A stretch of DNA of 64,000 nt from an uncultured delta proteobacterium (GTDB lineage: Bacteria; Myxococcota_A; Polyangia; Fen-1088), in assembly GCA_963758155.1 (NCBI GenBank), contig CAVWUP010000019.1, positions 6,720-70,719 on the forward strand. Reading direction: 5' to 3'. Below the pieces are notes generated by a model. The model saw nothing but the letters and a program-made list of their open reading frames with translations. It was not told where the DNA came from and searched no databases. Made by a program: the position numbers and the translations under genes. Of this stretch, positions 27,114 to 46,200 are shown piece by piece. Position 1 is the stretch's first letter; the number at the start of each line of letters is the position of its first letter.

Positions 27114-29342
27114 ATGAGTCGATTCGGCCGACGTGAACTTCTGGGTGGCGCTGCGCTGGCGGGCGCCGCGGCTTGGGGCTGTCGCCCGGGCAAGGATCGC
27201 TACCGCATCGACAAGCCGCCGCTGCCAGGCAGCCGTCCCGGCGAGGAGCGCTGGGTTCTCTCCACCTGCGCCCTGTGCAACGCGGGTTGCGGGATCAAGG
27301 TGCGCGTGGTGGAGGGCAGGGCGGTCAAGATCGAAGGCAACCCGGATCACCCGGTGAACCGCGGCGGTCTGTGCAGCCGCGGCCAGGCGGCGCTGCAGGC
27401 GCTGTACAACTCGCAGCGCGTGCATGCGCCCCTGCGGCGGCTGGGCGATCGCGGTGACGGTTCGTGGAAGCTGATTTCGTGGGACGAAGCCATCGGTGAA
27501 ATCGTGACCAAGCTGGGCAAGCTGCGCGCCGCTGGCCATCCCGAACGGCTGGTGTTGATCGACGGCGAAGCAGGCACGTTCACCCACGTGCTTTGGACGC
27601 GTTTCCTGTCGGCGTTCGGCAGCCCGAACCACATTGGAATGGGATCGGCTCGCGCCGCGGGCGTCAAGTTGGCCAGCCTCTACACGACGGGCAGTTACGG
27701 TCTGCCCGCGCACGATCTGGCCCGGGCGCGGGTCGTGCTGGCCTTTGGTGCGGAACAGATCGAATCGTCGGGCCAGACCATGCAGTTCATGCGCGCGGCC
27801 AGCGCGTTTGAGCGCCCACGCGTGATCTGCGTGTCGCCGCGCCGGCCGAGCTGCCGTTGCGATGAATGGATCCCGATTGCGCCCGGAACCTACGGCGCGC
27901 TGGCGTTGTCACTGACCCATGTGCTGGTTCGCGATGGCCTCATCGACCGGGACTTCGTCCGCGATTTCGTCTCAGGCTTTTCCACGGGGCGCGACCGAGC
28001 CGGTGTCGAGCAGCCAGGATTCGAGGCGTTGGTTCGCGCGGGGTATGCGCCGGACAGGACACAAGAAGTGACGGGCATTCCGGCAGCCACAGTCGAGCGG
28101 CTGGCGCACGATCTCGCAAAACAGCGCCCCGTGGTAGTTACCGGCGACGGTAGCGCAACGGCGGCGAGCAATGGACTGGCCACGGGTATGTCCATCGCTG
28201 CGCTCAATGTGCTGCTGGGAAACTCGGACCAAGGCGGAGTCGCGGGACCGCGTGAGATCGCTGTTCCGAAATGGGAGGCGCCCATTGTCGATGCGGTCGC
28301 AGCCGCCGGCAGCTCGGCCCCACGCATCGACGGCGCAGGCACGGCGGCTTGCCCGCTGGGGCGCGGTCGCGTGCAAGCCGTTCCCGCGGCCATCACACAG
28401 TCCAGTCCCTATCCCGTCGAGGCGCTGTTTCTGCACGGCACAGATCCGCTGGCCGCGCTGCCAGGACGGAAGGCCTGGCATACGGCGCTCCAGCGAGTGC
28501 CTTTCTTGGTGCGATTCGCCTCGTGGCTCGACGACAGCGCCCGCGGGGCGGACCTGGTGTTGCCCGAGTCTCTGCCTCTCGAGGCATTGGACATAGTCCA
28601 GCTCGCGGCGGATTCGGGCGAGCCCATGCTCAGCTTGCGCCAGCCCGTGGTGGCGCCCTTGTCAGGCACGCGGCAGGCGGGCGACGTCATTGTCGCTCTT
28701 GCTGCTGGACTTGGCGGATCAGTCGGCCGCTCGCTGCCGTGGAAGAGCTACGCAGACGCTGTGGCAAAATCGCTGTCAGCGGAAACCTTGGCTGACATGA
28801 AAGGAAAGGGCGGCCAGTGGAACGAGGCCAAGACCGACCTGCCTCCGCGCAAGTTCGAGATCGGCTCGCAGGCGATCGCGTCGCGCATGGCCGGCTTTCC
28901 CGACGCTGCGATGGCAGCACAGGCCTGGCCGTGCAAGGGATTGCCCCCCTGGGAGCCGCCCCGATTTTCCGGCGACCCGCGAAGGTTCCCCTTGCAACTT
29001 GTCCCTTACCGGCCGGTTCAGTTTGTCGAAGATGGCGGGCCGTTTTTGTCTTGGCTAGGTGAGCTGCCGCTGGTCTCGGGCAATCCATGGCCGCTGCGCG
29101 CGGAGATCAATCCTGCCGATGCTGCGCGCCTCGGTGTGGCCGACGGAGACCAGGTGCTGGTTCAATCTTCGATTGGCACCTGCCCGGCCATCGCGCAGGT
29201 CAGCGACGGTGTCTGCGTGGGCGCGGTGGCCATGGCCTTGGGCCCGGGCGGGGTTGCCGATCTGGTGGTGTCCGACGAAGACCGCTGGTCAGGCGTGCTG
29301 GCCTGGCAAGGCACGCGCGTGCGCGTGAAGAAGATGTCATGA
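27114..29342 (+). CDS. TAT-exported molybdopterin (Mo/W-bisPGD) oxidoreductase-family large subunit (PsrA/QrcB/ActB1-like)
   Basis: Twin-arginine signal MSRFGRRELLGGAALAGAAAWG. N-terminal 4Fe-4S motif CALCNAGC...C. 742 aa. The stop overlaps the next ATG (ATGA). Confidence 0.85.
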   Translation: MSRFGRRELLGGAALAGAAAWGCRPGKDRYRIDKPPLPGSRPGEERWVLSTCALCNAGCGIKVRVVEGRAVKIEGNPDHPVNRGGLCSRGQAALQALYNSQRVHAPLRRLGDRGDGSWKLISWDEAIGEIVTKLGKLRAAGHPERLVLIDGEAGTFTHVLWTRFLSAFGSPNHIGMGSARAAGVKLASLYTTGSYGLPAHDLARARVVLAFGAEQIESSGQTMQFMRAASAFERPRVICVSPRRPSCRCDEWIPIAPGTYGALALSLTHVLVRDGLIDRDFVRDFVSGFSTGRDRAGVEQPGFEALVRAGYAPDRTQEVTGIPAATVERLAHDLAKQRPVVVTGDGSATAASNGLATGMSIAALNVLLGNSDQGGVAGPREIAVPKWEAPIVDAVAAAGSSAPRIDGAGTAACPLGRGRVQAVPAAITQSSPYPVEALFLHGTDPLAALPGRKAWHTALQRVPFLVRFASWLDDSARGADLVLPESLPLEALDIVQLAADSGEPMLSLRQPVVAPLSGTRQAGDVIVALAAGLGGSVGRSLPWKSYADAVAKSLSAETLADMKGKGGQWNEAKTDLPPRKFEIGSQAIASRMAGFPDAAMAAQAWPCKGLPPWEPPRFSGDPRRFPLQLVPYRPVQFVEDGGPFLSWLGELPLVSGNPWPLRAEINPADAARLGVADGDQVLVQSSIGTCPAIAQVSDGVCVGAVAMALGPGGVADLVVSDEDRWSGVLAWQGTRVRVKKMS

Positions 29343-30164
29343 AGCGCGGCCCATCCGACGACGACATGCGCGACTCGCGACGCAAGCTCTTGGCAGGGCT
29401 GGCCGCCTCGGCCGCGGGCGCAATGGTGGGTTGCGCGCGCGCGGTGGCTGCAGCCGAGCGCACTGCCGGTTCACGCGGCCGACGGACATCGCCGCCAGTG
29501 GGGCCTGGTCATCGATCTCGACCGCTGCGCCCGTTGTGCCGGGTGCGTGGTGGCTTGCCAGCAAGAGAACAACGTCGCGCCCGCTGGCCCGCGCGTCGCG
29601 GCCCGCACGCGCCCGATCCACTGGATGGATTTTTTGCCGCCCGCGCCGGGAAGCTGTGCCGCCACTCCCATTCCCTGCATGCACTGCCAGGACCCGCCCT
29701 GCGTGAAGGTTTGCCCGGTGGGCGCGACCTACCAGACCGACGAAGGAATCACAGCGCAGGTCTGGGACCGTTGTATTGGCTGTCGCTATTGCATGGTGGC
29801 CTGTCCCTATGCGCGCCGCTATTTCAATTGGAGCGAGCCCGACTGGCCCGGCCAAGATCTGAGCAGCCTCAATCCCGACGTGGCCCCGCGGCCGCGCGGC
29901 GTGGTGGAAAAGTGCACCTTGTGCCACCACCGCATTCGCGCTGCGCTCGAGCGCGCGCGTCTCGACGAGGAACCGCTCACCGACGAAGCCTTGCACCGGC
30001 TGCCGGCTTGCGCCCAGTCCTGTCCGACCCAGGCCATCACTTTCGGTGACTTGGCTGAGCCCACATCCGAGGTGGCACGCCTGGCCGTGAGTCCGCGCGC
30101 CATGCGACTGCTTCCCGAGGCTGGCACGCGGCCCAAGGTCATCTACTTGCGGGAGAGCACGTGA
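29339..30164 (+). CDS. 4Fe-4S ferredoxin-type electron-transfer subunit (NrfC/PsrB/QrcC/ActB2-like) with an apparent +1 frame discontinuity near 29465-29490
   Basis: Frame 2 from ATG 29339 gives a TAT-type signal MKRGPSDDDMRDSRRKLLAGLAASAAGAMVGCARAVAAAER. Frame 0 from ~29487 gives HRRQWGLVIDLDRCARCAGCVVAC plus three more Cys clusters (CMHCQDPPCVKVCP, CIGCRYCMVACP, CTLCHHRIRA...C). Frame 0 has no start codon before the first ferredoxin motif. Confidence 0.7.
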
Positions 30165-31603: not shown

Positions 31604-31716
31604 GCCTCACGAGGTCACCCTGCTTGATGCTCTTGACGGTCCCCTTGAGCTGGTTTCTTGCGCTGATGGTCATGCTGGCTGCCATTCCTTGAAGAGTGTC
31701 GAAGCACACGCGCCCG

Positions 31717-32934
31717 TCACCGCGCTCGGATCTCGCCGACCTGCTGCCCTGATTCGTGCGTGATGTACCCGCCCACGGTGTCGAGTTCGCGCCGAAAAGT
31801 TCTGCCGCCCAGCATATCGACCAGGCGCTCGACTCTCGGGTCGGTCGCCAAGGTACGGGGGATCACGAGGTCGAAGCGTTCCACGGCGAGCGGAATGAAT
31901 CCCAGCCCAAAGGCCGCCGCAGCGCTGCGAATGGCGATTCCCGCGTCGGCTGCGCCCATGGCAATCGCTTGTGCGACCTCCATGTGTCCAAGGGCCACGC
32001 CCGCGCTGCCGGGCACGGATGCGGGAGGTACTTTTCTTGATCTCATCGCTTGTTCGAGCAGCTTGTTCGCTCCTGCGCCGGGCTCGCGTTGGATCAGGCG
32101 GATTCTACGATGGATAAGATCTTCCGCGCCTCGGATTCCCAGCGGATTGCCAGGTCGAACGACGATTCCCTGTTCCCAGGATGCGAAGTTGACGAACAGC
32201 ATCGCGCGGCCTGGCAGCGCGCGCCGAACGAACGGGATATTGAATTCCTTCGTCGCCTCGTCGCACAGGTGAAGGCCGGCGACATGGACCTCGCCTCGCG
32301 CGAGGGCCTCGAGCGCGGCCATGCTTGAGCCTTGAACCCAGGAGATGTGAATCCCTGCCGGCTCCTGGCCGAGCCTTGCCGCCAGCATCCCCAGCGCCGG
32401 CGCGCATCCCATGACGACCAGTCGCCGGCGGACAGTCTCGATGTCACCCAGGGGCTCGACTCGCACCGTTCGCGGGCTGGCACGGCGCCGTGGCCAAGGA
32501 ACCACCAGGCCATCGGCGGCGCGGGAAGATGACTCGCTGCGCCGCGGGTCGATGGGATGCGCGATCAAGCGCCCGTCTATCTCGGCCAGGGAAACCCGGG
32601 GGCTGTTCGACTCAAACGCCCAGAGGCTTTCAGCCAAAGTTGCATCGAGCGGCTCCGGCGGAACGTTGAGACAAAAGAGAGACTCGATCCGACAGCCGAG
32701 AACATGGGCGAGGCGGAGTGCAACGTCGGTGCCAGGGACCACGCGGCCACTCTCCAAGCCGCACAGACTTTGTCGTGACAGGCCGACCTTCTTCGCGAGC
32801 TGAAGCTGGCTCAGCCCGCGGGCCAGCCGGAACTCCTTCAGCGAGGAGCGAAGCGCGGGAGGCCTGACCGCGGGGCATGTGTCGCGCCGACCTGACACCA
32901 AGTCAAAGATGCTTGCGCCGTGGCGAAACGTCAA
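31717..32934 (-). CDS. transcriptional regulator with N-terminal XRE-type HTH and C-terminal periplasmic-binding-protein-like (PBP-like, TunR/ModE-like oxyanion-sensing) domain
   Basis: HTH LKEFRLARGLSQLQLAKKVGLSRQSLCGLESGRVVPGTDVALRLAHVLGCRIESLF. The C-terminal domain resembles ModA-like binding folds. It is convergent with the Mo-enzyme operon. Confidence 0.7.
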   Translation of the reverse strand: MTFRHGASIFDLVSGRRDTCPAVRPPALRSSLKEFRLARGLSQLQLAKKVGLSRQSLCGLESGRVVPGTDVALRLAHVLGCRIESLFCLNVPPEPLDATLAESLWAFESNSPRVSLAEIDGRLIAHPIDPRRSESSSRAADGLVVPWPRRRASPRTVRVEPLGDIETVRRRLVVMGCAPALGMLAARLGQEPAGIHISWVQGSSMAALEALARGEVHVAGLHLCDEATKEFNIPFVRRALPGRAMLFVNFASWEQGIVVRPGNPLGIRGAEDLIHRRIRLIQREPGAGANKLLEQAMRSRKVPPASVPGSAGVALGHMEVAQAIAMGAADAGIAIRSAAAAFGLGFIPLAVERFDLVIPRTLATDPRVERLVDMLGGRTFRRELDTVGGYITHESGQQVGEIRAR

Positions 32935-33115
32935 CTACTTTTGTTAGCACAGACTTGGCACCATGCCCCGGGTTGCAACGTTTGGGACGAAAGATGAGCC
33001 GCCTCGGTGGATTCCCGTCACTACAAGGGAGAGGCTTCCACCCGAGACTTGACCCACCCGGCACTCAGCCATGAATAGGTTCGGTCAGCCGTCCGCTTGC
33101 TAGAAGGAGTATTTC

Positions 33116-34885
33116 ATGAAGAACCAACGACGGGATTTCCTCAAGATCACGGCCGCGGGGGCGGCGGGATTGGCGCTGGCACGAGCGGACAAAGTATTCG
33201 CGGCATGGCCGACCACCGGCACCTTGGCGGTGAATCCCACCATCGACAACATGCGCGTCGTGGCCTGCGTCGACACGAAGATGCTGAAGACCGCCCTGAC
33301 CTCGATGACCTTCGCCGCGGAAAACGCGGCTGTTGACACGGCCCGCGTGCAGGCGAACATGGACGCCATGGCCATGCAACTGGCCAACCAGACCACCGCC
33401 GATGCGGCGTGGAAAGCCATTTTCAGGTCAAGCAAGGCGTGGAATGCCACGAAGGTCGCCATCAAGATAAATACAATTGAGCCCAAGAACCAGGCACGCA
33501 TAGCGGTCGTTCAGAAATTCTGTGAGCTCTTCTTGGGCTTTGGCGTGCTGCCGGCAAACATCATCGTCTATGACGGAAATACGACCTATGCCAAGCAGAT
33601 GGTCACTGATTACTCTCCGTATTTCAGCCTGACCGACACCACCAAGATCCAGGCCGTGGTCAGCAGTTTCAATGATTCACTGGGGGGCACGATAAACGCT
33701 GCCATTCCGGGCGGGAATCCCGCAACCGCGGCCTGCACTGCGGACATCGCCAATGGCACGATCGACATTCTGGTCAACATCGCAAACAACAAGGGCCACA
33801 CTGAAATGGGTGGGGCCACGCTGAGCATGAAGAACCACTTTGGCACTTTTGCTCCCAATCACGGTGCCAGCCCGGCCTATATCTTCAACATCAACAAGAG
33901 CGACGCCATTCTCGGGGGAACCCCCGTGCGGCAGCAATTGTGCTTTATCGATTCGATCGTCGCCAACAAGGCCTCGAATACGGGAACTCCAGAAGTGGCG
34001 CCCTGCTATCTCATCATGGGCGTGTTCGGTCCCGCGGTGGACTATCTGACCGTCAAGAAGGTCCGCGAGGCGGTCATGAATTGCACCCATGATGAGACGA
34101 TCATCAGCTCGTACATGACGACCTTCGGGTACGCGACAACCGACCCGGTGTGGGTTGTGGCGCCGCCCGCTGATGGCACAACCAGCGCCGATGCAGGCGC
34201 AGGCGGGGCAGGAGGCTCGGGCGGCGCGGGCGGCAGTGGCGGGACCAGCGGATCCGGCGGAGCGAGCGGTGGCGGGAGCAGCGGGGCCGGAGGAACGCGC
34301 ACCGGCGGGACCAGTGGGTCTGCCGGCGCCAGTGGCGGCGGGACCAGCGGGAGCGGGGGAGCACGCCCTGGCGGATCCAGCGGGTCGGGCGGCGCAGGCA
34401 ATGGCGGCAACAGCGCGACCGGTGGTGCGAGCGCAGGCGGCGGCAGCAGCGCGACCGGCGGTGCGACCGCAGGCGGCGGCGGCAGTGGGGCTGGAGGCGT
34501 GGCCAGCGGCGGGACGAGCGCGCCGGGGAGCACAGGCAGCGGAGGTGCCATTGCCACCGGCGGCGCGAACGCCAGCTCTGGCGCGTCGGGCGGCGGTGCC
34601 GGCGGCGGCGCCACCAGCGCTCCGCTGGCGTCCGGGGGCTCGACCGCGACAGGCGGGACGAAGGCCGCGGGCGGGACGACGGTGAGCGCGCTGGGCGGCA
34701 GTGGCGGCAGCCGCGAAACTGCCGGGGCGGGCACGACCAATGTCACCGGCGGCAACTCGTCAGGCGGCTGCAGTGTGGCCGGCGCCGAGAGCAGGACCAC
34801 CCGCTGGGGGGCGATGCTGGCGCTCGGCACAGTGGTGGCGGCCAAACTTCGGCGTCTGGTGGGCGGCGACGATCAGTCGTCGTGA
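33116..34885 (+). CDS. TAT-signal secreted protein of unknown function (possibly DUF362-like) with a long Gly/Ser/Ala linker and a MYXO-CTERM-type C-terminal anchor
   Basis: MKNQRRDFLKITAAGAAGLALARA twin-arginine signal. A ~330-aa globular domain is followed by a ~190-aa (S/T)GG(A/S)G repeat region. The C-terminus is GGCSVAGAE...AMLALGTVVAAKLRRLVGG. Confidence 0.65.
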   Translation: MKNQRRDFLKITAAGAAGLALARADKVFAAWPTTGTLAVNPTIDNMRVVACVDTKMLKTALTSMTFAAENAAVDTARVQANMDAMAMQLANQTTADAAWKAIFRSSKAWNATKVAIKINTIEPKNQARIAVVQKFCELFLGFGVLPANIIVYDGNTTYAKQMVTDYSPYFSLTDTTKIQAVVSSFNDSLGGTINAAIPGGNPATAACTADIANGTIDILVNIANNKGHTEMGGATLSMKNHFGTFAPNHGASPAYIFNINKSDAILGGTPVRQQLCFIDSIVANKASNTGTPEVAPCYLIMGVFGPAVDYLTVKKVREAVMNCTHDETIISSYMTTFGYATTDPVWVVAPPADGTTSADAGAGGAGGSGGAGGSGGTSGSGGASGGGSSGAGGTRTGGTSGSAGASGGGTSGSGGARPGGSSGSGGAGNGGNSATGGASAGGGSSATGGATAGGGGSGAGGVASGGTSAPGSTGSGGAIATGGANASSGASGGGAGGGATSAPLASGGSTATGGTKAAGGTTVSALGGSGGSRETAGAGTTNVTGGNSSGGCSVAGAESRTTRWGAMLALGTVVAAKLRRLVGGDDQSS

Positions 34886-35051
34886 CGGGCTCAAGTAGGC
34901 GGCGGGAGAAGCCAGGGTGTTTGACGGATTTCCGTTGGGCGTCCTGGGAACTCCTGCGGTATCCGCCTGCCAGCCAGGATTCTTGCCGTGGCCCGGAGGT
35001 CGTCGTCTGTTAGTATCCGTGTCAATCTCTGACGTTCAAAGGATCATTCCC

Positions 35052-35621
35052 ATGCAAATCAGAACCTCGATCGCTTTCTTTGTTTTTGGATGTCTGTTCT
35101 TGGTTGCAGGCAGCTCAGGCTGCGGCAGCAGTCCCAGCAGCCCCGCCGTCGATCCGGCGGCCTTTGCCAAGAAATACAAAATTGCCGACAATCAAATTCA
35201 GAACTGGACGCAGGATCCGAGCACGGATCCAAGCGCCAACTGGAGCGGCACGGACCTGGTTTCGTCGGGGATCGACGGCGGCAACGAGCGCTATGACAGC
35301 AGGGGGTTCAAGCAGGGACTGTTCCAGACTCTCGATGGTCCGAGTCAGCAACAATGCAACTTCCGCGCGATGGATTTCGGCACCGATGCCAACGCCACCA
35401 CCATGTTCACGTATTCTGTGCAGGGCGCTGGTGCCACTGTTCCCGTTCCACCTTTCGACATATCGGTTGCGGCTGGGGAGGCGGTGATGGGTGGCGCCAC
35501 GGTGTTTGCCCATTTCAAGGCATCGTACTTCGAGGTGTACATGACAGGGTATGCTGATACCGCTTCGGCAATCGCAGACTCAGCGCCATTCCTGACAGTG
35601 TTTCAGACAGATACCAACTAG
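35052..35621 (+). CDS. hypothetical lipoprotein
   Basis: ATG 35052 follows AAAGGA. The signal MQIRTSIAFFVFGCLFLVAGSSGC has a lipobox. Confidence 0.5.
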   Translation: MQIRTSIAFFVFGCLFLVAGSSGCGSSPSSPAVDPAAFAKKYKIADNQIQNWTQDPSTDPSANWSGTDLVSSGIDGGNERYDSRGFKQGLFQTLDGPSQQQCNFRAMDFGTDANATTMFTYSVQGAGATVPVPPFDISVAAGEAVMGGATVFAHFKASYFEVYMTGYADTASAIADSAPFLTVFQTDTN

Positions 35622-35762
35622 GAAGACGCACAATCGGGCTGCGCCGAACGGGCGGCCGTCAGGCGGACAAACCATGGCCCGAGAGGCGCGGGTGGAACCG
35701 CGGGGTAGCGACGCGGTAGCCAGCGGGTAAACTTTGCTACACTCCCGTCGCGTCAGGTTGAC

Positions 35763-36930
35763 ATGACGGCTGGGTTCGGGAATGCTTCCGGCATGGACAC
35801 CCGGGTTCGAACCGCGGTCAAGGCCATGCGGCTTAGGCTCGAGATGCAGCAGCGGGATTTGGCCAAGGCTGTTGCCGTCAGTCGACAGACGCTCAGTTCG
35901 ATCGAGGCGGGCGAGACGGTTCCATCCACGCAGATCGCCCTGGCGCTGGCGCGCGAGCTGCGCTGCCGAGTAGAGGATCTCTTCAGTCTGCGTGGCGATG
36001 GACAGGTGCTCGAAGCCGAGTTCGTGCCTGAGGCGGATCGCAGTCCCGGCGATGGGCACAAGACGCGGGTGTCGCTGGGCTGGGTGGGTGAGCGCTGGGT
36101 CGCACGCTTGCTGGAAACCGACGAGGCTTTGGCGCTTGGCACTCCGGCCGACGGAATCGCGACGCTGTCAAAGGGAAAGGGCAAGTGGACCAAGCGCGCG
36201 TCCGTCCCCTTCGCGATCTGGAATCTCTTCATCGCAATCTTCTGGTCGCGGGCTGCGATCCCGCGCTCGGCTTGCTGGGGCGCCATCTGGAGGAGCGTTT
36301 CCACGGTCCTCGGTTGCATTGGATCGAGAAGGCAAGTCGGCCCGCGCTGGAGGAACTGGCGTTGGGGCGGGTGCACTTCGCCGGGATGCACCTTCTGGGC
36401 GAGGGCGGGGTGGGCGAGAACGTGGTTGCCGTTCGTGAAAGGTTTGGCAGCGAGCCCATGGTGCTGGTGACGCTGGCTTCATGGGAACAGGGCTTCGTCA
36501 GTCGGCCGGGATATCGGTACAAGAGCGCGGCGGACTTGGAACGGAAAGGCACGCGTGTAATCGCGCGAGAAGCGGGCGCGGGCGCGCAGGAGCTGCTGGA
36601 AAGCGTCTGTTTCGCAAGGCGGGCCGAAAGTTCAAGAACGTGGCGCCGGTGGCGATGGCGCGCGGGCATCGCGCGGTGGCGCAGATGGTGGCCATGGGGG
36701 TGGGCGACGTCGGCGTGGCCACGCGCTCGGCGGCGGCGAGCTTTGGCTTGCACTTCGAGCCGCTGGCAGAGGCTTGCTTTGATTTGGTCTTTCCGGCGGC
36801 GCTCGCCTCGGACGGTCGCGTGCAGGCGTTGCTCGATTGTCTGTCTGATGGGCGTTTTCGCCAGGATCTGGGGGGCATGACCGGCTATCGAACCGTACGC
36901 ACAGGACAGGCTTTCACAGGGCGCACAAGC
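35763..36930 (+). pseudogene. frame-disrupted paralog of the HTH-XRE + PBP-like regulator at 31717-32934
   Basis: Homology to the intact regulator continues across three reading frames. The HTH part is in frame 0 (35763-~36200), the middle part in frame 2 (~36200-36600) and the C-terminal part in frame 1 (~36600-36930). The junctions fall in GC-rich/homopolymer tracts. Confidence 0.55.
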
Positions 36931-37732
36931 ATGAATCGTCGCGGGCTCGTTCTCGCAGGCATGGTGGCCGTCTGTCTCAATGCACGCCGTTCCTTGCAAT
37001 GCAGCGCGCGAGGCAAGTCGAGCGCAGGAACTGGTGGTGTTTGCGGCGGCATCGCTGCGTGAGGTCTTTCAGAGCGTCGCACTGATTTTCGAGAAGCAAC
37101 ACCCGAATACGAAGGTCCGTTTCAACTTCGCGGGCAGCCAGGACCTACGCGTGCAGATCGAGCAAGGCGCCAAGGTTGACGTGTTCGCCTCGGCCGACTG
37201 GAAGCACATGAAGCTTCTGGCAACCCAGAAACTGGTCAGCGGCCCCGCGGTCTTTGCGCGCAATTTGCCGGTGTTGGTCGTGCCCAAGAACAACCCCGCC
37301 CAGGTGCGCAGCTTTGCGGATCTACCAACAGTCGCGCACCTGGTGATCGGCGCGCCCGAGGTGCCGATCGGTGCCTACACTGAAACGATTTTCGCAGCGG
37401 CGGAAAAGCTTTACGGCAAGGCCTTCCACGAACGGATCCTGGCGCGGGTGCGCTCGCGCGAGCTGAATGTGCGCCAGGTATTGACCAAGGTCGCGCTGGG
37501 CGAGGCCGACGCGGGCATCGTGTACAAGACCGATGCGCTGACCATGCCCGACAAGGTCCAGATCATCGAGATTCCCACTGAGATCAACCTGGTGGCCGAG
37601 TATCCCATCGCGGTCTTGAGCGCGGCGCCTCACTCCGAGCAGGCGCGCGCGTTCGTGAAACTGGTCTTGTCCAAGGAAGGGCAGAAGACGTTGGCCGCGG
37701 CGGGCTTCAGCAAAGTCGACGGAGCGAAGTGA
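36931..37732 (+). CDS. modA: molybdate/tungstate ABC transporter periplasmic substrate-binding protein ModA (signal peptide and mature domain in different frames)
   Basis: The mature domain carries ModA motifs ELVVFAAASL, VDVFASAD, GEADAGIVYKTDA and YPIAVLSAAPHSEQARAFVKLVLS. The signal peptide MNRRGLVLAGMVAVCL starts at ATG 36931 and is in another frame, so there is a +1 discontinuity near 36990-37020. Confidence 0.75.
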
Positions 37733-37747
37733 GGCAAGCGACTTCTT

Positions 37748-38560
37748 ATGCCAGAAGTCGTCGTCTCTACGACGCGGCCATGGTCGGGACTGGGCGGCGT
37801 GCTGTTGCTGTTTCTCGTGCTGCCCTTCGTGGCCCTGGTTTTCGATGGCGGACCCGAGGCCATCTGGCGCGGTCTCGGCTGCTCTTTGACCTGGCCCGCA
37901 CTGCGACTCAGCCTTGGGACGACGCTGGTATCGGTTGTGCTGGTGGTCGTGGGAGGCACGCCGCTGGCTTGGTGGCTGGCGCGTTCGCGCTGGCGTTCGG
38001 CGCGTTGGCTGGAGATCCTATTGCAGCTTCCGGTGGTGATTCCGCCGGCGGTGGGCGGCATCGCGCTGCTGCTGGCGTTTGGTCGGCGCGGGCTGTTTGG
38101 CGGAACCCTGGAGCGTCTCGGCTGGACGCCGGCCTTCAGCGCCGTCGCAGTTGTCATGGCCCAGGTCTTCGTGTCGGCCCCGTTCTACTTGCAAGCTGCG
38201 GTACAGGCCTTTGGCCCGTTGAACCCCAATTTGCTGGCCGTGGCGCGCAGCCTGGGCGCTTCGCCGCCGCGCCTGCTTTTGCGGGTGGCCTTGCCCCTGG
38301 CGCGCCCCTGGCTGATTGGTGGGGCCGCCATGAGCTGGGCACGCGCATTGGGGGAATTCGGTGCCACCTTGATGTTCGCCGGGAACATGACGGGCAAGAC
38401 CCAGACTCTGCCCCTGGCCATTTACACCGCATTGGAACTCGACATTCACACCGCGCAGGCCTTGTCGCTCTTATTGGTTTCGTTTGCCTTTGCCCTGTTG
38501 CTCTTTCTCCGGCGCTTTAATCGCGATCCCGAGGTCGCGCGCAGGCTGGCCACGCAATGA
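37748..38560 (+). CDS. modB: molybdate ABC transporter permease ModB
   Basis: CysTW-family signature RSLGASPPRLLLRVALPLARPWLIGGAAMSWARALGEFGATLMFAGN, with six TM segments. Confidence 0.85.
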   Translation: MPEVVVSTTRPWSGLGGVLLLFLVLPFVALVFDGGPEAIWRGLGCSLTWPALRLSLGTTLVSVVLVVVGGTPLAWWLARSRWRSARWLEILLQLPVVIPPAVGGIALLLAFGRRGLFGGTLERLGWTPAFSAVAVVMAQVFVSAPFYLQAAVQAFGPLNPNLLAVARSLGASPPRLLLRVALPLARPWLIGGAAMSWARALGEFGATLMFAGNMTGKTQTLPLAIYTALELDIHTAQALSLLLVSFAFALLLFLRRFNRDPEVARRLATQ

Positions 38561-39357
38561 CCGGCGCCTCAGTTGCGCGATTGTCTGTCGCGGTTGAAGC
38601 CGTGTTGGGAACATTTGTGCTCCAGGTCTCACTCGAGGTTGGTGCTGAGCCGCTGGCCCTGGTTGGTACCAACGGTTCGGGCAAGACCAGCTTGCTTCTG
38701 ACTATCTTGGGGCTGCGCAATCCCGCGCGCGGCCGCATCGTGCTTTGCGACGAGGTTCTTTTCGACGCCGAGACGGCCGTCGACCTTCCCACAGAAGAAC
38801 GCCACTTGGCATATTTGCCGCAGGACTTTGGCTTGTTTCCCCACCTGAGTGCGGTCGAAAACGTGGCCTTTGCCCTGGCATGCCGGTCACAGCGGCTGAG
38901 CGCAAGACAACGTCGCGACGAGGCCATGACCTGGCTGGAGCGCTTTGGAATCGGCCAGCTGGCGAAGCGAAACCCGGCGCGACTCTCCGGCGGCGAACGG
39001 CAGCGGGTCGCGCTGGCACGGGCTTTGGCGTCGTCTCCCAAGGCGCTTCTGCTCGACGAGCCCACGGCATCGCTGGACGTCGAGGCCCGTGTCGAGGTGC
39101 GCGCCTTTTTGGCTGAATCCATCCGCGCGCTCGGCTTGCCCACCATCCTGGTCACCCACGACGCCAAGGATGTCGAGGCCCTGGCCAGCCGCGTGGCGGT
39201 GCTCGAGAACGGGCGGGTTGCCGGTTGCGGCGTGCTGGGCGACATCCGGCAAAACCCACCGACGTCGTTTGCCAGCAAGCTGTTCGACTCGTCGAGAGTT
39301 CCGGGCGTAGGCGCAATCGCCAGCCCCTCTTGTGGTGGAGACGTTTCTCACAACTGA
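38557..39357 (+). CDS. modC: ABC transporter ATP-binding protein of the mod operon (ModC-like, no C-terminal TOBE domain)
   Basis: Walker A GTNGSGKTSLL, signature LSGGERQRVALARAL and Walker B LLLDEPTASLD. The start overlaps the modB stop. Confidence 0.8.
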   Translation: MTGASVARLSVAVEAVLGTFVLQVSLEVGAEPLALVGTNGSGKTSLLLTILGLRNPARGRIVLCDEVLFDAETAVDLPTEERHLAYLPQDFGLFPHLSAVENVAFALACRSQRLSARQRRDEAMTWLERFGIGQLAKRNPARLSGGERQRVALARALASSPKALLLDEPTASLDVEARVEVRAFLAESIRALGLPTILVTHDAKDVEALASRVAVLENGRVAGCGVLGDIRQNPPTSFASKLFDSSRVPGVGAIASPSCGGDVSHN

Positions 39358-39374
39358 AATAGGAGGTTCCTGCC

Positions 39375-41063
39375 ATGGCAACGTGCTTCGTCCTTAGAAT
39401 TCGATCCGCTCTTGCCTGTTTGTCTTCTTTGGCCTTCGCGGCCGCCCTGTCTGGATGCGGGAGTTCATCGGTATCCAAACCCGCAGATGCCGCCACGGAC
39501 ACATTGGCCATTGCCGACACAGCCAATCCCAACCTGGGCCGGGACACTGCCCAACCCGACACCGCAGTCGACATGGCGCTCTCTCCCGATACTGTTTCCA
39601 GTCCGGGGTTGGACGCATCCGACACCGGCGGCACAGTCGACGCGGGAGGCGTTGTCGACGCGCCCATCGCCACTGGCGGATTGGACGCGCCCACCGCGGA
39701 CGTCCCGGCCGACGGAGTCGGTGATGGCGGCGACGGAGGCAGCGACAGCGGCTCGTTGGCGGACGGCGGGGGCGGCGACGCCGGTCCTACCACCGCTTGT
39801 TCGTCGCTCGTGAATCCGCTGTACATAATGACGGGCGACACGCAGGTGCCAGTGCTGAAGACCCTGGGCAAAGCCTTGCGGCAAAACTCAGCGAATCCCA
39901 TCACGCTGGTTTGGTTCGCAACTGGCTCTTGCACCATCATCGACGCTGTCTACAACGGCACTCCGCTGACCCAGATCCCGTCCTACATCCCGAGCGATCC
40001 CACCTGGGATGACACCACGGGCGCAGTACCGACCTGTGCCTTGGAAAGCGGCGGGCGCAGCGTGGACATCGGCATTCCCATCGTGTTCCCCGCAGCCTGC
40101 TCGACCGCCACTCCGCCTGCCAACTTGGGCGCATTCAAGGGTCCGGTGCAGTCGATGCTCTTCGTGGTGCCCAAGTCGGCTTCGCCCATGGCCATCAGCT
40201 CACAACAGGCAGCCCTGGTCTTCGGTACAGGCGCCACGGCCAACATCGCGCCCTGGACCGACGAGAATTTCTACTTCATTCGCCCACCCACCAAGGGCGT
40301 GGAGGTGAGCCTTGGCGCCCTGATCGGTGTGGCACCGGCGCTGTGGCATGGGAAGCAAATCAGCGCTTCCAACGATGTCGCCACCGACGTGGCCACCTCG
40401 GTGCAGCCTGACAAGACCATCGGAATTCTTGGCAGCGAGACATACGACAGCACAACCAACCGGGCCAATCTCAAGGCGCTGGCTTTCCAGGCCGTGAATC
40501 AGACCAACGGCTATCTTCCCGATTCCACCGCAACGGCCTTCGACAAGCGAAGTCTTCGCGAGGGGCACTATGTCGCCTGGGCGCATGTCTTCTACTTGAC
40601 CAAGGTGACCTCAACCGACGCAGGCGTGTCCGTTCCAGTCAACGCCAACGCCAAGCTGTTCATCGACATTCTCACCAACACAGCCGATTCCGGCATTCCG
40701 TCCACGCTGGATCCAGTGGCGCTCGTGGCGAAGAAAGGAATCGTTCCTCTGTGCGCCATGACGGTGACCCGCTCCGTCGAAGGTGGCCCTCTTTCACTCT
40801 CCGCGCCGCCTGATCCTTGCGGCTGCTACTTCGAGAAAACGCTCGGCACCGGTACGGTTCCCACGTCCTGCGTGGCCTGTACCACAAGCGCGTCTTGCAC
40901 GGGTGGCACCACCTGCCGCCATGGCTACTGCGAAGCTGACGATGGCCGCACCTCACTCAGCGATTGCAGCGCTCTCGCCAGCGGCGCCACGTACGCTCAG
41001 ATCATCAACAATACCTGCACCGCTGGGGCGCGCTTTCAGGCCGACAACATTCCCAATCCGTGA
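39375..41063 (+). CDS. lipoprotein with Asp/Gly/Thr-rich linker, a possible periplasmic-binding-like domain and a Cys-rich C-terminus
   Basis: Signal with lipobox AAALSGC. The central region ITLVWFATGSCTIIDAVYNG resembles a binding-protein fold. The C-terminus is a myxobacterial-type Cys cluster SCVACTTSASCTGGTTCRHGYC. Confidence 0.55.
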   Translation: MATCFVLRIRSALACLSSLAFAAALSGCGSSSVSKPADAATDTLAIADTANPNLGRDTAQPDTAVDMALSPDTVSSPGLDASDTGGTVDAGGVVDAPIATGGLDAPTADVPADGVGDGGDGGSDSGSLADGGGGDAGPTTACSSLVNPLYIMTGDTQVPVLKTLGKALRQNSANPITLVWFATGSCTIIDAVYNGTPLTQIPSYIPSDPTWDDTTGAVPTCALESGGRSVDIGIPIVFPAACSTATPPANLGAFKGPVQSMLFVVPKSASPMAISSQQAALVFGTGATANIAPWTDENFYFIRPPTKGVEVSLGALIGVAPALWHGKQISASNDVATDVATSVQPDKTIGILGSETYDSTTNRANLKALAFQAVNQTNGYLPDSTATAFDKRSLREGHYVAWAHVFYLTKVTSTDAGVSVPVNANAKLFIDILTNTADSGIPSTLDPVALVAKKGIVPLCAMTVTRSVEGGPLSLSAPPDPCGCYFEKTLGTGTVPTSCVACTTSASCTGGTTCRHGYCEADDGRTSLSDCSALASGATYAQIINNTCTAGARFQADNIPNP

Positions 41064-42357
41064 AGACGCGCATTGGCCGGTTGAGTTTGGGCGGGCTCTT
41101 TTTGGTCGGGGCGGTGCACACTGCCCTGGCCGAGGAGGCGCCTGCGCCAGCTCAACCGGCGGTGGCGACCAGTTCGGCGGGCCGTCTGAGTGTAGGAGAG
41201 ACCACTCTGACGGTTGGAGGGTTTGTGCAAGCAGACGCCGTGCTGATGGACCAGTCCTCGCAGGATCAGCTCTCCCCCTCTGGGGGCGAGCCTCTCAATA
41301 CGGAACGGCTTCTCATTCGCCGTGGACACCTCTTCGTCGAAGCCAGCCGAAGAATTCCTTCGCGCGGCGGTCGAGCTGGACGCGAATACGGTCAAAGGCA
41401 TGGCGGTCGGATTGGCGCGGGCCGAGCTGGCCGCGGGCCAGACGCGGCCGCAGTGGAACTGGGAACTTGCCCTTGGCCTCGTTCGCATTCCATTCGGACT
41501 TGAAGTTCAGGAATGGGATCCCGATCGTTTCTTTCTGGAGCGCAGCAACGTCAGCCGCGCGCTCTTTCCCGGCACATTTGACTTGGGTGCGCGCGCACAA
41601 ATTGGCTGGCGATTCTTGCGTGCGCAAATGGCGGTCATGAATGGCAACCCACTGGGGGACGCATCTTTCCCGGCCCGCGATCCCAATGCGGCCAAGGATT
41701 TTGTGGGAAGGATGGGAATGGATGCCACCATCGCGGCCAAGGTCCATGTCACCGCTGGCGTTTCTTCGCTGAAGGGCACCGGGATTTCATCCCGGCACGC
41801 CCGCGACCAAGAACGTCCTGGTGTGGAACGACCAGAACGAAGACGGTATTGTCCAACTCAGCGAGATCCAGATCATTCCCGGCCGCGCGGCCACGCCATC
41901 GCAGAATTTCTCGCGCTTCGCCGTGGGGGCAGACAGTCGCATCAGCTTCGCGATTCCCCGCTTGGGTACCTCGGTGGTCTTCGGCGAAGTGGTTTGGGGC
42001 GCCAATCTGGATCGCGGGCTGCAGCCCGCCGATCCCGTTGCATCTGGTCGCGACTTGCGGGAATTCGGCTGGGTTGTGGGTGTCAGCCAGGAATTCACGC
42101 CATGGGTTGGGTTCGGCGCTCGCTACGACTTCTACAACCCGGACGTGGATGCCTCTCGGCAAACACCCACGGTTCTGGTGCCCAAAGATGTGTCCTTTCG
42201 CACCTGGACCTTCACGCTCTCGTTGGGCGGCTTTGCTCACAATCGTTTGGCTCTCGAATTCCAACATAATCGCAATGCGCTGGGCGTGGCTTCCGATGGA
42301 TCGCCGACGACCCTGGCCGCGGACACGCTGACCTTGCGCGGGCAGATGGTCTTCTGA
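41060..42357 (+). CDS. outer-membrane beta-barrel porin (phosphate-selective porin O/P-like) interrupted by two frame discontinuities
   Basis: GTG 41060 overlaps the upstream stop (GTGA). The signal is MKTRIGRLSLGGLFLVGAVHTALA. Beta-strand-rich sequence continues in frame 2 (to ~41330), frame 0 (~41330-41790) and frame 1 (~41790-42357), ending in the OMP-typical C-terminal TLRGQMVF. Confidence 0.55.
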
Positions 42358-43262
42358 TGAAGGGCAGGTCCGCCACATGGCTTTTGCCCCTCGCCGTGGC
42401 CGCGTGCGGCGGCGCGACCAGTGACACCGGCGTGGAGGCTGTCGTGCGCGTGGCCGGCGGTCAGTTCTATCGCGGCTCGATCGACAAGCTGGTCAGCGTG
42501 CGGACAGCCCCAACCGTCGTGGACGTGTTGAATAGCCAAAACGTGATCACGCCCGGCCTGGAAAACAAGCAGATCTCTGGCCGCTTGGATCCAGGGAGCA
42601 CGGCGGTGGCCATCGGTTTGGCTGGCGATATCGGCTACTGGATTCTTGCGGCTGACGTGCCTGACATGGACAGCCCAACCCAACCGACCTTCCATGCCAG
42701 CCTGTCGTTTTCACCGTCGCTGCCAAAAACGTCCTACGATCTACTGGTTCGTGCGGCGGCCCCGCCCAACAGCATGGGGCCCGCGACGCATGTGCCTCTG
42801 GACGTGGAGCAGAGCTTGCCCCCGACCGGGGCGTTGGTTGTCTCATTGTGGTGGGACACGGAGTCCGATCTCGATCTGCACGTGGTCGACCCTTCTGGGG
42901 TCGAGGTGTGGGCCGGCAACATCAACTCCTACGATCGATATTCGACGTTGCCGATGCCCGATGCTGGAGCCATGAGTGAAGCTGGCATTCTCGACTTCGA
43001 CTCCAACGCTGGGTGCGTGATCGATGGCCGTTGCAATGAGAACGTGGTTTGGGCAGTGACCGCGCCAGTCGGTGACTATGTGGCTCGCGTGGACACATTC
43101 TCGCTTTGTGGGAATTCGGCTGCACGCTGGACTGTAGAGGCACTGCTCAATGGGGTTTCGCTGGGCAAGGCAAAGGGCGAGGCACTTCCCGCCAGTCAGC
43201 GTTTCAGCAAAGGCAAAGGTAGTGGACTCACGGTCCTGACATTCACTGTTCCATCCCCATGA
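42357..43262 (+). CDS. hypothetical lipoprotein (operon member)
   Basis: The ATG overlaps the porin stop (TGATG). The signal MKGRSATWLLPLAVAACGG has a lipobox. Confidence 0.55.
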   Translation: MKGRSATWLLPLAVAACGGATSDTGVEAVVRVAGGQFYRGSIDKLVSVRTAPTVVDVLNSQNVITPGLENKQISGRLDPGSTAVAIGLAGDIGYWILAADVPDMDSPTQPTFHASLSFSPSLPKTSYDLLVRAAAPPNSMGPATHVPLDVEQSLPPTGALVVSLWWDTESDLDLHVVDPSGVEVWAGNINSYDRYSTLPMPDAGAMSEAGILDFDSNAGCVIDGRCNENVVWAVTAPVGDYVARVDTFSLCGNSAARWTVEALLNGVSLGKAKGEALPASQRFSKGKGSGLTVLTFTVPSP

Positions 43263-45301
43263 AAGCGCAGGCGAGCGTCTTCACGCTGGCAATGCTTGCG
43301 GGCGAGCCCGAAGCGCTGGCGAGCGACGCCAACGAGACCGTGGTGATTGCGCCGCCGTCGAAGACCGTAGGCGAGTCTGGCTTTTCCACGTCTGAGTTGC
43401 GCCAGCTTCCCGGAGCGCAGGGCGATGCGGGCAAGGCCCTGGAAAACCTGCCCGGTGTGGCACGGCCGGGACTGGCGGGTGGCGAACTGGTGGTGTGGGG
43501 CGCAGCGCCTACCGAGACACGCGTGGTGGTCGACGGCATGGAGATTCCAGCGCTGTATCACTTGGGTGGACTACGTTCGGTGGTTCACAGCGGCTTCTTG
43601 CGCACGCTGACCCTGGTGCCTGGCGGCTATGGTCCGGAGTACGGCCGCGGCCTGGGCGGACTGGTTCAAATGGCCAGCCGGGGGGGGCCGATCGAACGCT
43701 ACCAAGGAGAGGTGGATGTGGATGTCCTCGATGCGTCGTTTTGTGCGGGCGCGGCCACAGAAAAAGGCGCTGGCGTTCTGGCCGCCGGCCGCATCGGCTA
43801 TCTGGATCGTATCATGAACGGCGCCCTATCATCCGACACCCGGCGCTTGTTTCCCCTTGCGCGCTATCGCGACTTTCAGGGCAAGGCCGTTTTCCCTTTG
43901 CGCGATGACGAAAGAGTCGAGGTGATCTTCCTGACCTCTGCCGATGCCAGCTCGATCTCTGGTAGCACTACGATTCCTTCCTCGTTTGCCGAGCAAGATC
44001 GGACGCAATCCTTTTCCCGTCTCGGGTTCAGATACCTGCGCGCGTTTCCCGATGGTGCAAGCGCATCGCTGACTCCCTTTGTTGGCTGGGACCAAACGCG
44101 CCGGCAGGAAATCGCGGGGCAGGGCAGGGCGGACGAATCGATGGCCTCGACCGTGCTGGGTCTGCGCGGAGAGTACGGGGCGCCGCTTTCTCCGAGGCTG
44201 ACTCTGGTCGCGGGGTTTGATGGACTGCTTACGCTGTCGAACGTCGAGCGCTCCGGATCACCGACGCTGCCGCCCAGAGAAGGCGACATAGTCGCTTTTG
44301 GCCAGCCGATGTCGGGAGGAGCGAGTGCTGACACGTGGAGCGCCTCGGTGGGAAATCTGGCTCCCTACACCACATTGGAGATCACGCGAGGGCGTTGGCG
44401 CTTGCTTCCGTCGCTGCGGCTTGACGGATTCGTCATCTCACCCGATCGCAGCACCCCCGAGAATGGCGTCACGCCGCGAGCGGGATCTGCGCGTTTGTCC
44501 TGGTCGCCAGCTCCGCGTCTGGCCGTCGCACACCAGACCCGTTCTTGGCTGCGCGAAAACCTGTCGCTGGGGCTGTACCACCAGGCTCCCGCGCCGAGCG
44601 ACCTGAGTGCAGTCTTTGGTTCGCCCAGCCTGGGGGTTGCCCACGCTGTGCACGTTGTGGCTGGGACAGACATGGATGTCGGTCAGCACCTGAACGTGCA
44701 GCCCACTTTGTTCTACCGCTATATGTGGGATCTGGTGATGCGCAATCCCGACGCAAGCCCTGCCTTGGCGCACGCTCTGGTTCAAGATGGCGTGGGCCGC
44801 GCCTATGGCGCCCAGATCCTATTGCGCTTCTCGCCTCACGCGGGGCTTTCTGGTTGGCTGGCCTACACGCTCAGCCGCAGCGAGCGCAGGCACGCCTCCG
44901 ATCCATCCTACCGACTGCTCGATCAGGACCAAACCCATCTTCTCACCTTCGCTGCCCATGCTTCGCGCCGCGGGTTCGTCCTGGGTCTGCGATTTCGCTT
45001 GGCCAGCGGAATGCCACGAACGCCAGTGATTGGCAGCTACCTGGACGCGACCACAGGACAGTACCAGCCCATCTTCGGCCCACAGAACAGCATTCGCCTG
45101 CCTGTCTTTTACGCGCTCGATCTTCGCGTCGAGAAGCACTTTCGCAGACGCTCGCTGGACATCGTTCCTTACCTGGAAATTCTCAACCTTACCAATCACG
45201 CGAACGTCGAGGAATTCGCCTACGACGAACAATTCGCCTCGCGCTCGAACATCACGGGCCTGCCCATTCTCGCCGTGGCCGGAGTGTCAGTGAGGTTCTG
45301 A
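43259..45301 (+). CDS. TonB-dependent receptor-like outer membrane transporter (plug + 22-strand barrel)
   Basis: The signal peptide is followed by a plug-like region (ETVVIAPPSKTVGESGFSTSELRQLPG...ALENLPGV), a long beta-barrel region and a C-terminal aromatic residue (...VSVRF). The start overlaps the previous stop. Confidence 0.7.
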   Translation: MKAQASVFTLAMLAGEPEALASDANETVVIAPPSKTVGESGFSTSELRQLPGAQGDAGKALENLPGVARPGLAGGELVVWGAAPTETRVVVDGMEIPALYHLGGLRSVVHSGFLRTLTLVPGGYGPEYGRGLGGLVQMASRGGPIERYQGEVDVDVLDASFCAGAATEKGAGVLAAGRIGYLDRIMNGALSSDTRRLFPLARYRDFQGKAVFPLRDDERVEVIFLTSADASSISGSTTIPSSFAEQDRTQSFSRLGFRYLRAFPDGASASLTPFVGWDQTRRQEIAGQGRADESMASTVLGLRGEYGAPLSPRLTLVAGFDGLLTLSNVERSGSPTLPPREGDIVAFGQPMSGGASADTWSASVGNLAPYTTLEITRGRWRLLPSLRLDGFVISPDRSTPENGVTPRAGSARLSWSPAPRLAVAHQTRSWLRENLSLGLYHQAPAPSDLSAVFGSPSLGVAHAVHVVAGTDMDVGQHLNVQPTLFYRYMWDLVMRNPDASPALAHALVQDGVGRAYGAQILLRFSPHAGLSGWLAYTLSRSERRHASDPSYRLLDQDQTHLLTFAAHASRRGFVLGLRFRLASGMPRTPVIGSYLDATTGQYQPIFGPQNSIRLPVFYALDLRVEKHFRRRSLDIVPYLEILNLTNHANVEEFAYDEQFASRSNITGLPILAVAGVSVRF

Positions 45302-46200
45302 TGCGTGGACTTGCACTTCCTGCGTTTCTGTTGCTGGCCAATTGCGCGCCGAAAATGGGCAATCCTGCTTCGCTCATCACGCAGGAACGGATCATCGGCG
45401 TGCGCGGCGATCCTGCTGAAGCGGCGCCTGGAGATCTGGTCAAGTACTCCAGTTTGGTGGCTTCTCCCTCGGGAACCGTGCAGGCCCAGCAACTGTCGTG
45501 GAGTCTGTGCAAACTGCGCAAGCCGGTTGCCGAGAACACCCCAGTGAGCCAGGCCTGCCTGACCGACGATCTGGCGCAGTCGGCACAGGGCGGATCGGTC
45601 TCGATTCAGACGCCCAGCTCCGCGTGTTCGAATTTTGGGCCGTTGGCGCCAGCCTCAAGCGGTGGAACCCTTCGACCCTCCGACCCGGACGCGACCGGTG
45701 GCTACTACCAACCCCTGCGGCTTGATCTCGACGCGGCGCAGGCCATTTTTCGCGAGCGGCTGAGCTGCGGGCTCGCGGGCGCGTCGCTGGCCATGGCCCA
45801 GGAATTCCGCGCGAGCTACACCCCCAACCAGAATCCCACGCTGGTGTCCCTGTCGGCCCTGGTGGACGGGACGTCGGTGTCGCTCGATGCGCTGCCGGCC
45901 AGTCAGCGCGTTGGCCTGGTCGCGACCTGGGCGCCCGACTCGGCTGAATCCTATCCCGTCTTCGATTCTGCCTCGCAGACGATCGTGGACCAGTCTGAGG
46001 ATCTTTGGCTCTCTTGGTTCGCCACGGCCGGCGCTTTCGACAAGTCGCTGACTGCGCGCCCGGAAGGCGATACGGCGGCCGCGAACGAAAACACTTGGGA
46101 GTCCCCCGCAGGGGCTGCGGTCGTCTTCCTATGGCTCGTCCTGCACGATAGCCGCGGGGGCGCTGACTTCGCCGCCTACACGCTGACGGTTGTGCCGTGA
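45300..46200 (+). CDS. hypothetical lipoprotein (last gene of the mod/receptor operon)
   Basis: The ATG overlaps the receptor stop (TGATG). The signal MRGLALPAFLLLANC has a lipobox. Confidence 0.55.

Follow-up and report, generated by a model that had tools for sequence, protein, structure and literature searches.

Paired XRE-PBP_like regulators at a conserved modABC locus of uncultured Polyangia, and the broken reading frame of one of them

The window analysed here is a stretch of 64,000 nucleotides (nt) from an uncultured delta proteobacterium of the Polyangia, a soil myxobacterium (assembly GCA_963758155.1, contig CAVWUP010000019.1, positions 6,720 to 70,719 of the forward strand). Near its middle lie two genes, here called reg1 and reg2, whose products combine an XRE-type helix-turn-helix (HTH) with a C-terminal PBP_like domain. 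The second of them heads the modABC operon, which encodes a molybdate transporter of the ATP-binding cassette (ABC) type, and its reading frame is broken in the deposited sequence. Taken together, our comparative analyses indicate, with a probability of roughly 0.7, that reg1 and reg2 encode paired one-component regulators linked to molybdate or tungstate in a conserved uptake locus, and that the breakage of reg2 is artefactual.

Two regulators in a conserved gene order

The two genes are paralogs, as a preliminary description of this DNA had proposed. Both products match HTH_3 and PBP_like (PF12727) in Pfam, and they share 38-41% identity over about 375 amino acids (aa; tblastn E 1e-65 to 1e-71). 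The only DNA-binding models that matched the regulators in Pfam are of the XRE type (HTH_3, HTH_31, HTH_19 and HTH_26), with no match to HTH_17. For reg1, the E values are 1.4e-12 for HTH_3 and 7.7e-64 for PBP_like. Its open reading frame (ORF) runs unbroken from 31717 to 32934 on the minus strand, where it reaches a TTG (405 aa); translation probably begins at the GTG at 32898, giving a length of 393 aa like that of the orthologs, and a protein of 393 aa (P0001) is identical to reg1. The gene is convergent with that of an NrfD-type membrane subunit, which ends at 31603, and the earlier picture of an intact regulator converging on an oxidoreductase operon was thus upheld.

In the sequence as given, reg2 spans three frames, one of which holds HTH_3 (E 2.4e-12) and the other two PBP_like profile positions 2-113 and 114-192, respectively (two pieces, E 2.2e-22 and E 5.7e-15). 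The frame is shifted by insertions of GG at 36179-80, AA at 36600-01 and C at 36922. The last segment of the raw gene meets its first stop only at 37062, and the third insertion puts the TGA that should overlap modA (as ATGA) in another frame; when the 5 bases are removed, a 378/388-aa ORF results, and its terminal TGA overlaps the modA ATG. The preliminary description was therefore right that the raw gene reads across three frames, although there are three frame-breaking events rather than two and they are not confined to reg2; the position directly upstream of modA with an ATGA overlap, which it had also reported, applies after correction. When the repaired reg2 was used as a database query, hundreds of single-ORF orthologs were retrieved, and the best intact orthologs are 96-97% identical; MGB8295139.1 is one of the intact orthologs.

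Among uncultured Polyangia/Myxococcales, several lineages at the species level share the surrounding gene order. It runs from a TOBE gene through reg1, a divergently oriented exported protein of 584-599 aa, a lipoprotein of 189-192 aa, reg2, modA (with the ATGA overlap) and modB to modC, and continues with three genes for products of 562, 431 and 300 aa, one for a 680-aa product resembling TonB-dependent receptors, and one for a product of 299 aa. In these relatives reg1 is followed by the TOBE (Mop-like) gene as a separate gene of 67-102 aa, and reg2 overlaps modA in every relative fetched. At least three species-level lineages hold both paralogs intact and in synteny, and the two have therefore been kept as functional genes across the clade.

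Variants of this arrangement were also found. Genome MFD02138.bin.2.6 (contig L016, 7301-11498) has reg1 and TOBE immediately next to modABC without a reg2, so that a single paralog may suffice to control the transporter. A family member from Firmicutes lies upstream of a tupABC-like transporter. In a Myxococcaceae genome of 9 Mb (L025:142-5934), an XRE-PBP_like regulator adjoins a homologous TonB-receptor cluster with no modABC nearby, and the cluster is thus tied to the regulator family itself. This five-gene cluster, which follows modABC throughout the clade, is nearly devoid of family annotation, the TonB-receptor barrel and Plug matches of the 680-aa gene being weak; its candidate function is uptake across the outer membrane, subject to the same control. 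Table 1 sets out the features of the locus.

Table 1. Coordinates of the regulators and neighbouring features in the window.
Feature	Position	Strand	Description
Iron-sulfur (Fe-S) subunit, QrcC/DsrO-like	29339..30164	+	Belongs to the adjacent oxidoreductase operon; a single A is inserted at 29452
TOBE (Mop-like) gene remnant	31608..31673	-	First 22 codons only, cut where the NrfD gene ends; from alignment with L008 and L003
reg1	31717..32898	-	Intact one-component regulator, 393 aa: XRE HTH, beta-rich linker, PBP_like sensor
Divergent intergenic region, reg1 / 589-aa gene	32899..33115	.	reg1 promoter-like block, conserved in seven lineages
Exported protein, 589 aa	33116..34885	+	Twin-arginine translocation (TAT) signal, DUF362-like domain, MYXO-CTERM-like tail; divergent from reg1 in all close relatives
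Predicted lipoprotein, 189 aa	35052..35621	+	Cysteine-containing signal sequence; lies between both regulators in relatives too
Conserved block upstream of reg2	35722..35792	+	From alignment of four lineages
reg2	35793..36934	+	Paralog of reg1, first gene of the modABC operon; alternative upstream ATG at 35763
modA, molybdate-binding protein	36931..37732	+	NCBIfam TIGR01256, 141 bits (cut-off 62.5)
modB, permease	37729..38560	+	One-base insertion C at 37785; N-terminus and body in different frames
modC, ATPase	38557..39357	+	Intact; Pfam ABC_tran
Downstream conserved cluster	39375..46200	+	Genes of 562, 431, 300 aa, 680-aa TonB-dependent-receptor-like, 299 aa; synteny in L007, L008, L010, L018, L027

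Sensor domain, candidate ligand and promoter-like blocks

An AlphaFold2 model of reg1, with a mean predicted local distance difference test (pLDDT) score of 90.4, consists of the HTH at about residues 20-77, a beta-rich linker at 84-150 and a two-lobed binding-protein fold at 160-390. When this model was compared with the Protein Data Bank (PDB) by Foldseek, class-II anion binders and LysR effector domains were matched, among them Peb3, binders of phosphate, phosphonate and sulfate, and ModA/WtpA (3cfx, 1wod and 1atg); target-normalised template modelling (TM) scores ranged from 0.5 to 0.7, and no structure was clearly closest. Sequence searches of solved structures matched the HTH alone and never the sensor domain, the family profile finding 9k3w (E 2.5e-15) and the HTH of PbsX-family, CylR2 and 434 repressor proteins. 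In addition, reg1 reached 26.2 bits against Pfam SBP_bac_11, the ModA family, which is marginal at a cut-off of 25, and an hhalign comparison with the local ModA gave E 7.7e-5 at a probability of 62%, confined to the C-terminal lobe. Together with the Foldseek matches to ModA/WtpA, these results agree with the earlier proposal of a relationship between the sensor domain and oxyanion binders of the ModA type.

Across 53 family members, the residues G164-C165-x-P167, S192, H210, W241, R271, A277, G304-H305 and D318 are invariant. In the reg1 model they sit after strands and at helix starts, which is where binding-protein folds usually hold anions. Judged by eye, the corrected reg2 keeps the motifs that hold most of these residues.

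Upstream of both regulators (32890-32934 on the minus strand and 35758-35795 on the plus strand) we found conserved blocks with a near-consensus -35 element, TTGAC(A/G), a 17-nt spacer, a weak -10 element and 6-7 nt to the start codon. At reg1 the elements are TTGACG (32929-32934, minus strand) and CATCTT, the latter about 7 nt from the GTG start. At reg2, GTAAACTTTGCTA is followed by GTCA-N3-TGACA overlapping TTGACA (35758-35763), and AATGCT stands 6 nt before the ATG at 35793. This spacing suggests that both regulator mRNAs may be leaderless; the block of reg1 may act as a promoter and that of reg2 as a promoter or operator. Small palindromes overlap both blocks (GTCA-N3-TGAC at reg2, TGAC-N5-GTCA at reg1), and TTGAC-N5-GTCAA overlaps the reg1 start codon, where its conservation may come from coding. 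The shared inverted-repeat operator that the preliminary description had suggested searching for did not emerge, as the four promoter regions held no strong inverted repeats.

Several of these observations weigh against a molybdate- or tungstate-linked regulator. The palindromes TGTCA-N3-TGACA and TTGAC-N5-GTCAA occur in the window at or below chance frequency, and no operator is claimed. Judged by sequence, the similarity of the regulators to ModA is at the superfamily level only, and where ModA has the tyrosine of its GIVY motif, a molybdate ligand, the regulators have an isoleucine (ADAGIVYK vs ADAGIAIR). Moreover, phosphate is bound in both of the two solved PF12727 structures (PMC10443332). 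These last points would fit an alternative hypothesis, namely that the regulators are real but sense another anion, such as phosphate, phosphonate, sulfate or thiosulfate, and that the position beside modABC reflects cross-regulation; the weak Phosphonate-bd match of reg1 and the Foldseek neighbours, where binders of the phosphate, sulfate, Peb3 and LysR types stand on a par with ModA, point in the same direction. However, linkage to modABC, to a TOBE/Mop gene and to a tupABC-like transporter recurs independently in different phyla, and PF12727 is carried both by TaoR and by the MoeA protein DVU0951. We consider another anion unlikely on this account. A putative role of reg1 and reg2 in molybdenum (Mo) or tungsten (W) control is proposed from context: the overlap with modABC, the pairing with TOBE, the tupABC-like linkage and the domain shared with TaoR and DVU0951.

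Under a Mo/W role, molybdate or tungstate would bind in the cleft of the sensor domain, and the bound oxyanion would change operator binding by the XRE HTH. With ample metal in the cell, this would switch off the genes for uptake along with reg2 itself, in the manner of ModE acting on modABC.

Origin of the frame disruptions

A sister genome, GCA_049690695.1, was reached via members of the ortholog clusters, and two of its contigs were aligned to the window. The first, L028, is 99.9% identical to 21716-34367 across 12.6 kb, with 10 substitutions and 1 insertion or deletion (indel). The second, L027, covers 34523-44563, with zero mismatches in 34523-35999 and 37200-39399. The best named relatives, metagenome-assembled genomes from the Stordalen fen labelled 'Myxococcales bacterium', reach 81-84% identity. 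The sister genome differs from reg1 by 1 amino acid over the 405-aa ORF, and reg2, modA, modB, modC and the genes of 562, 431 and 300 aa are all intact in L027.

All 12 indels relative to L027 are insertions in the window (GG at 36179, AA at 36600, C at 36922, AA at 36979, C at 37005, A at 37015, C at 37785, A at 41350, A at 41784, and T, G and A within 42499-42512). With the indel of L028 included, 13 of 13 events relative to the sister genome are insertions of 1-2 bases in the window, and their flanks are 99.9-100% identical to it. Between 36600 and 39399, there are as many insertion events as substitutions against the sister genome (6 of each). Deleting 13 bases brought five genes to exactly the length of their orthologs: the Fe-S subunit at 274 aa, reg2 at 378/388 aa, modA at 265 aa, modB at 276 aa, and the 431-aa gene.

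Two of the insertion sites join two haplotypes exactly: at 36600 the window has GGAAAGCGTCTGTTT, the union of GGAGCGTCTGTTT and GGAAAGCCTGTTT as they occur in relatives, and at 37785, in modB, it has GGTCGGGACTGG, the union of GGTGGGACTGG and GGTCGGGCTGG. A change of similarity was also observed at 36127/36128, where the L007 sequence, after 1 mismatch across 1261 nt, begins to diverge from the window by 5-8%; an independent Logan contig (L013) has 100% identity to the window and stops precisely at 36127, and the first insertion lies 52 nt past this breakpoint. The position looks like a branch point of strain variation. As for selection, polarised changes on the window branch of reg2 number 6 nonsynonymous (N) to 23 synonymous (S), compared with counts of 4 N and 19 S along the branch of L007, and the summed N/S ratio on the window branch is 0.51 in the disrupted genes vs 0.52 in their intact neighbours. 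As N/S is not raised, selection on reg2 shows no relaxation.

Because the spectrum consists entirely of insertions, indels equal substitutions in number, haplotype unions occur and selection is unrelaxed, the frame disruption is very probably an artefact of consensus or assembly and not biology. The most probable cause would be a consensus built over co-occurring strain haplotypes, and the disruption of reg2 is most likely one of at least 10 small insertion errors in the interval 29.4-41.8 kb of the assembly. Two other explanations of the errors were rejected. Errors spread evenly at 0.5 per kb are ruled out by about 24 kb of uninterrupted long ORFs upstream, and homopolymer errors do not serve as a general cause, most sites lying outside homopolymers.

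The remaining shifted genes show the same type of change. In modA, insertions at 36979-80 (AA), 37005 (C) and 37015 (A), with a net effect of +1, fall in the signal-peptide region and leave the signal peptide and the mature part in different frames. The 431-aa gene (41060-42356) is split over three frames by A at 41350 and A at 41784. In the Fe-S subunit gene, the insertion at 29452 parts the TAT signal from the cluster-binding domain, and the first cluster motif stands in the other frame, without an available start codon. This last shift had been predicted from the window before L028 was aligned, and the lone indel of that contig then fell in the predicted stretch; the gene is intact in the sister genome. 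The three single-base insertions at 42499-42512 fall in a 14-nt stretch inside the 300-aa gene and amount to one extra codon, so that the frame is kept, and the peptide is locally scrambled (VSVRTAPT vs ASGDSPA); these insertions probably share their origin with the others.

Frames were mapped with a six-frame Viterbi coding model trained on confident genes; a frame plot of G + C at third codon positions (GC3) and a first codon-usage scan were dropped as too noisy. The model found no further internal frame switches in the remaining ~51 kb of the window. A suspected frameshift near 18998 proved on checking to be two separate genes: at 18262-19522 on the minus strand, two adjacent flavodoxin-like / NAD(P)H-oxidoreductase-like genes overlap in different frames. 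Exact-protein look-ups with the window modA, modC and a reg2 fragment gave no match, a weak negative, given that the sister modC is annotated with a shorter start (251 aa). Frameshifted genes presumably yield no protein records. The independent contigs of the same strain (L001, L002 and L013) do not extend to the shifted sites.

Some points also count against an artefact. The call rests on comparison with other assemblies and not on read coverage, the sister genome is a different assembly that could represent a different strain, the errors are clustered in 12 kb and not spread over the window, and some sites, such as 41784, fit no haplotype in hand. An alternative hypothesis is that the frameshifts are real and that this strain very recently lost reg2-modAB uptake in a coherent decay of molybdate homeostasis. 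The affected genes are indeed functionally related, since reg2, modA, modB and the 431-aa gene belong to one operon and the Fe-S subunit to a complex of the molybdopterin type; the other ~51 kb of the window are free of frameshifts; and the TOBE gene beside reg1 is truly truncated, with a junction present in independent assemblies. However, bacterial mutation is generally biased towards deletions, and 13 of the 13 events are insertions. In addition, indels are as many as substitutions against a near-identical genome, three lesions have accumulated in reg2 alone at an N to S count of 6:23, modC and the 562-aa gene in mid-operon are unaffected, two sites are exact haplotype unions, and the sister genome, of the same species, is wholly intact. 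Real decay is thus quite unlikely, and the reading of the frame-disrupted reg2 as a pseudogene is not supported. The chance that reg2 is made via programmed ribosomal frameshifting or transcriptional slippage is practically nil: shifts exist and one site lies in an A-run (GGAAAG), but three shifts would be required in one gene at sites without a common slippery motif, the orthologs, including one of 97% identity, are all single ORFs, and unrelated neighbouring genes bear the same type of insertion.

With the breakage of reg2 regarded as an assembly artefact, a broken regulator gene before modABC is not to be read as gene loss here; the same artefact also affects four neighbouring genes.

Neighbouring genes and comparison with known systems

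Neither of the two genes that lie between reg1 and reg2 is annotated with a link to Mo. About 200 residues of the 589-aa exported protein are rich in Gly, Ser and Ala, with a local G + C content of up to 0.73-0.74, and two paralogs of this protein flank reg1 in L003-L006. No family match was obtained for the 189-aa lipoprotein. On the other side of reg1, the products of an operon at 26650-31603 are a cytochrome c with five haems, a subunit of the molybdopterin type that bears a TAT signal, the Fe-S subunit and the NrfD-type membrane subunit. The best scores of its large subunit were 262 bits (cut-off 440) for QrcB, a molybdopterin-binding-like subunit in the naming of NCBIfam, and 256 bits (cut-off 694) for PhsA, below every family cut-off; for the operon as a whole, the best family matches are QrcB/QrcC (menaquinone reductase) and PhsA, all of them below their cut-offs.

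The intact counterpart of the TOBE remnant in relatives matches TOBE at Pfam E 2.5e-17. The TOBE/NrfD junction of the window, in 31584-31673 on the minus strand, is also spanned by the independent Logan contig L001 and by the sister contig L028, and the truncation, unlike the frameshifts, looks like a real rearrangement. Among the other relatives fetched, none carries the oxidoreductase operon within ~10 kb of reg1. Because the operon is absent from the vicinity of reg1 in other relatives, and because the truncation junction is found in this species, the adjacency of operon and reg1 is, on the gene orders compared, a lineage-specific rearrangement outside the conserved regulon. The notion of a Mo-themed region bracketed by the two regulators is thus weaker than first stated, since the operon lies beside reg1 in this species only, the QrcB-like matches fall below cut-offs and the intervening genes carry no Mo annotation.

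The combination of XRE and PBP_like domains is widespread. Counted as clusters at 50% identity, the family has 2484 representatives when E<=1e-10 is required, or 730 when the limit is E<=1e-30; most are full-length proteins of 360-400 aa. Some members already bear the name 'molybdate-binding protein/DNA-binding XRE family transcriptional regulator'; we found no experimental work on this architecture. The family thus presents a widespread architecture that joins an XRE DNA-binding domain to a TaoR-type sensor and is consistently linked to Mo/W transport genes, and it would offer a candidate regulator for molybdenum control in Myxococcota. A broader claim, which we advance only tentatively and regard as doubtful, is that it forms a large family of molybdate/tungstate sensors, the counterparts of TaoR, which in Myxococcota would control modABC together with the TonB-receptor-like cluster. 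If this were true, the cluster would provide energised outer-membrane uptake of molybdate, tungstate or a metal-chelate, and the paralogs might split the work, with reg2 in charge of uptake and reg1, with its Mop/TOBE partner, in charge of storage or a second metal.

Among known proteins, MoeA with a C-terminal PBP_like domain (NCBIfam NF011068) resembles reg1 in that residues 113-399 of the latter match profile positions 358-644 at E 3.4e-54. However, the regulators lack the MoeA catalytic domain, and the 184 bits of the match stay far below the cut-off of 534 bits. Names such as 'putative molybdopterin biosynthesis protein', given by some sources to family members, are therefore misleading. 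With ModA/WtpA the regulators share the class-II binding-protein fold and sequence motifs (ADAGIA-R vs ADAGIVYK), but they are cytoplasmic, having no signal peptide, and are fused to a DNA-binding domain.

ModE binds DNA with a winged helix and represses modABC in a molybdate-dependent manner in E. coli and other Proteobacteria. The regulators would resemble it as cytoplasmic, oxyanion-sensing transcription factors encoded beside modABC, with the regulatory logic expected of that position. Sensing by ModE takes place via tandem Mop/TOBE domains (PMC11980592). These are fused in ModE, whereas neither regulator here has a TOBE match in Pfam, and TOBE is a separate gene in the relatives.

TunR, to which the preliminary description had likened the two proteins, reportedly combines a XerC/XerD-like DNA-binding domain with ModE-like Mop effector domains, as Kazakov and colleagues are said to have described in 2013. 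It shares with the regulators a link to Mo/W homeostasis. In Pfam and NCBIfam, however, the regulators have no integrase/recombinase or TOBE match. The analogy was therefore set aside; the characterised regulator with PF12727 is TaoR (PMC11980592).

TaoR (DVU3193, tupR) is similar to the regulators in its C-terminal PBP_like sensor and in its linkage to Mo/W ABC transporters. It is said, in work attributed to Rajeev and colleagues in 2019, to shut down tupABC when the metal is plentiful. In TaoR, the PF12727 sensor is combined with an excisionase-type HTH_17 DNA-binding domain (PMC11980592), whereas the regulators described here carry an XRE-type HTH_3, the closest solved relatives of which are PbsX-family proteins and CylR2. 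The 'TaoR-like' proteins carry an added TOBE domain (PMC11980592), which parallels the separate TOBE gene after reg1. Their context suggests that reg1 and reg2 would function like TaoR and ModE while belonging to neither family, as a variant with an XRE DNA-binding domain.

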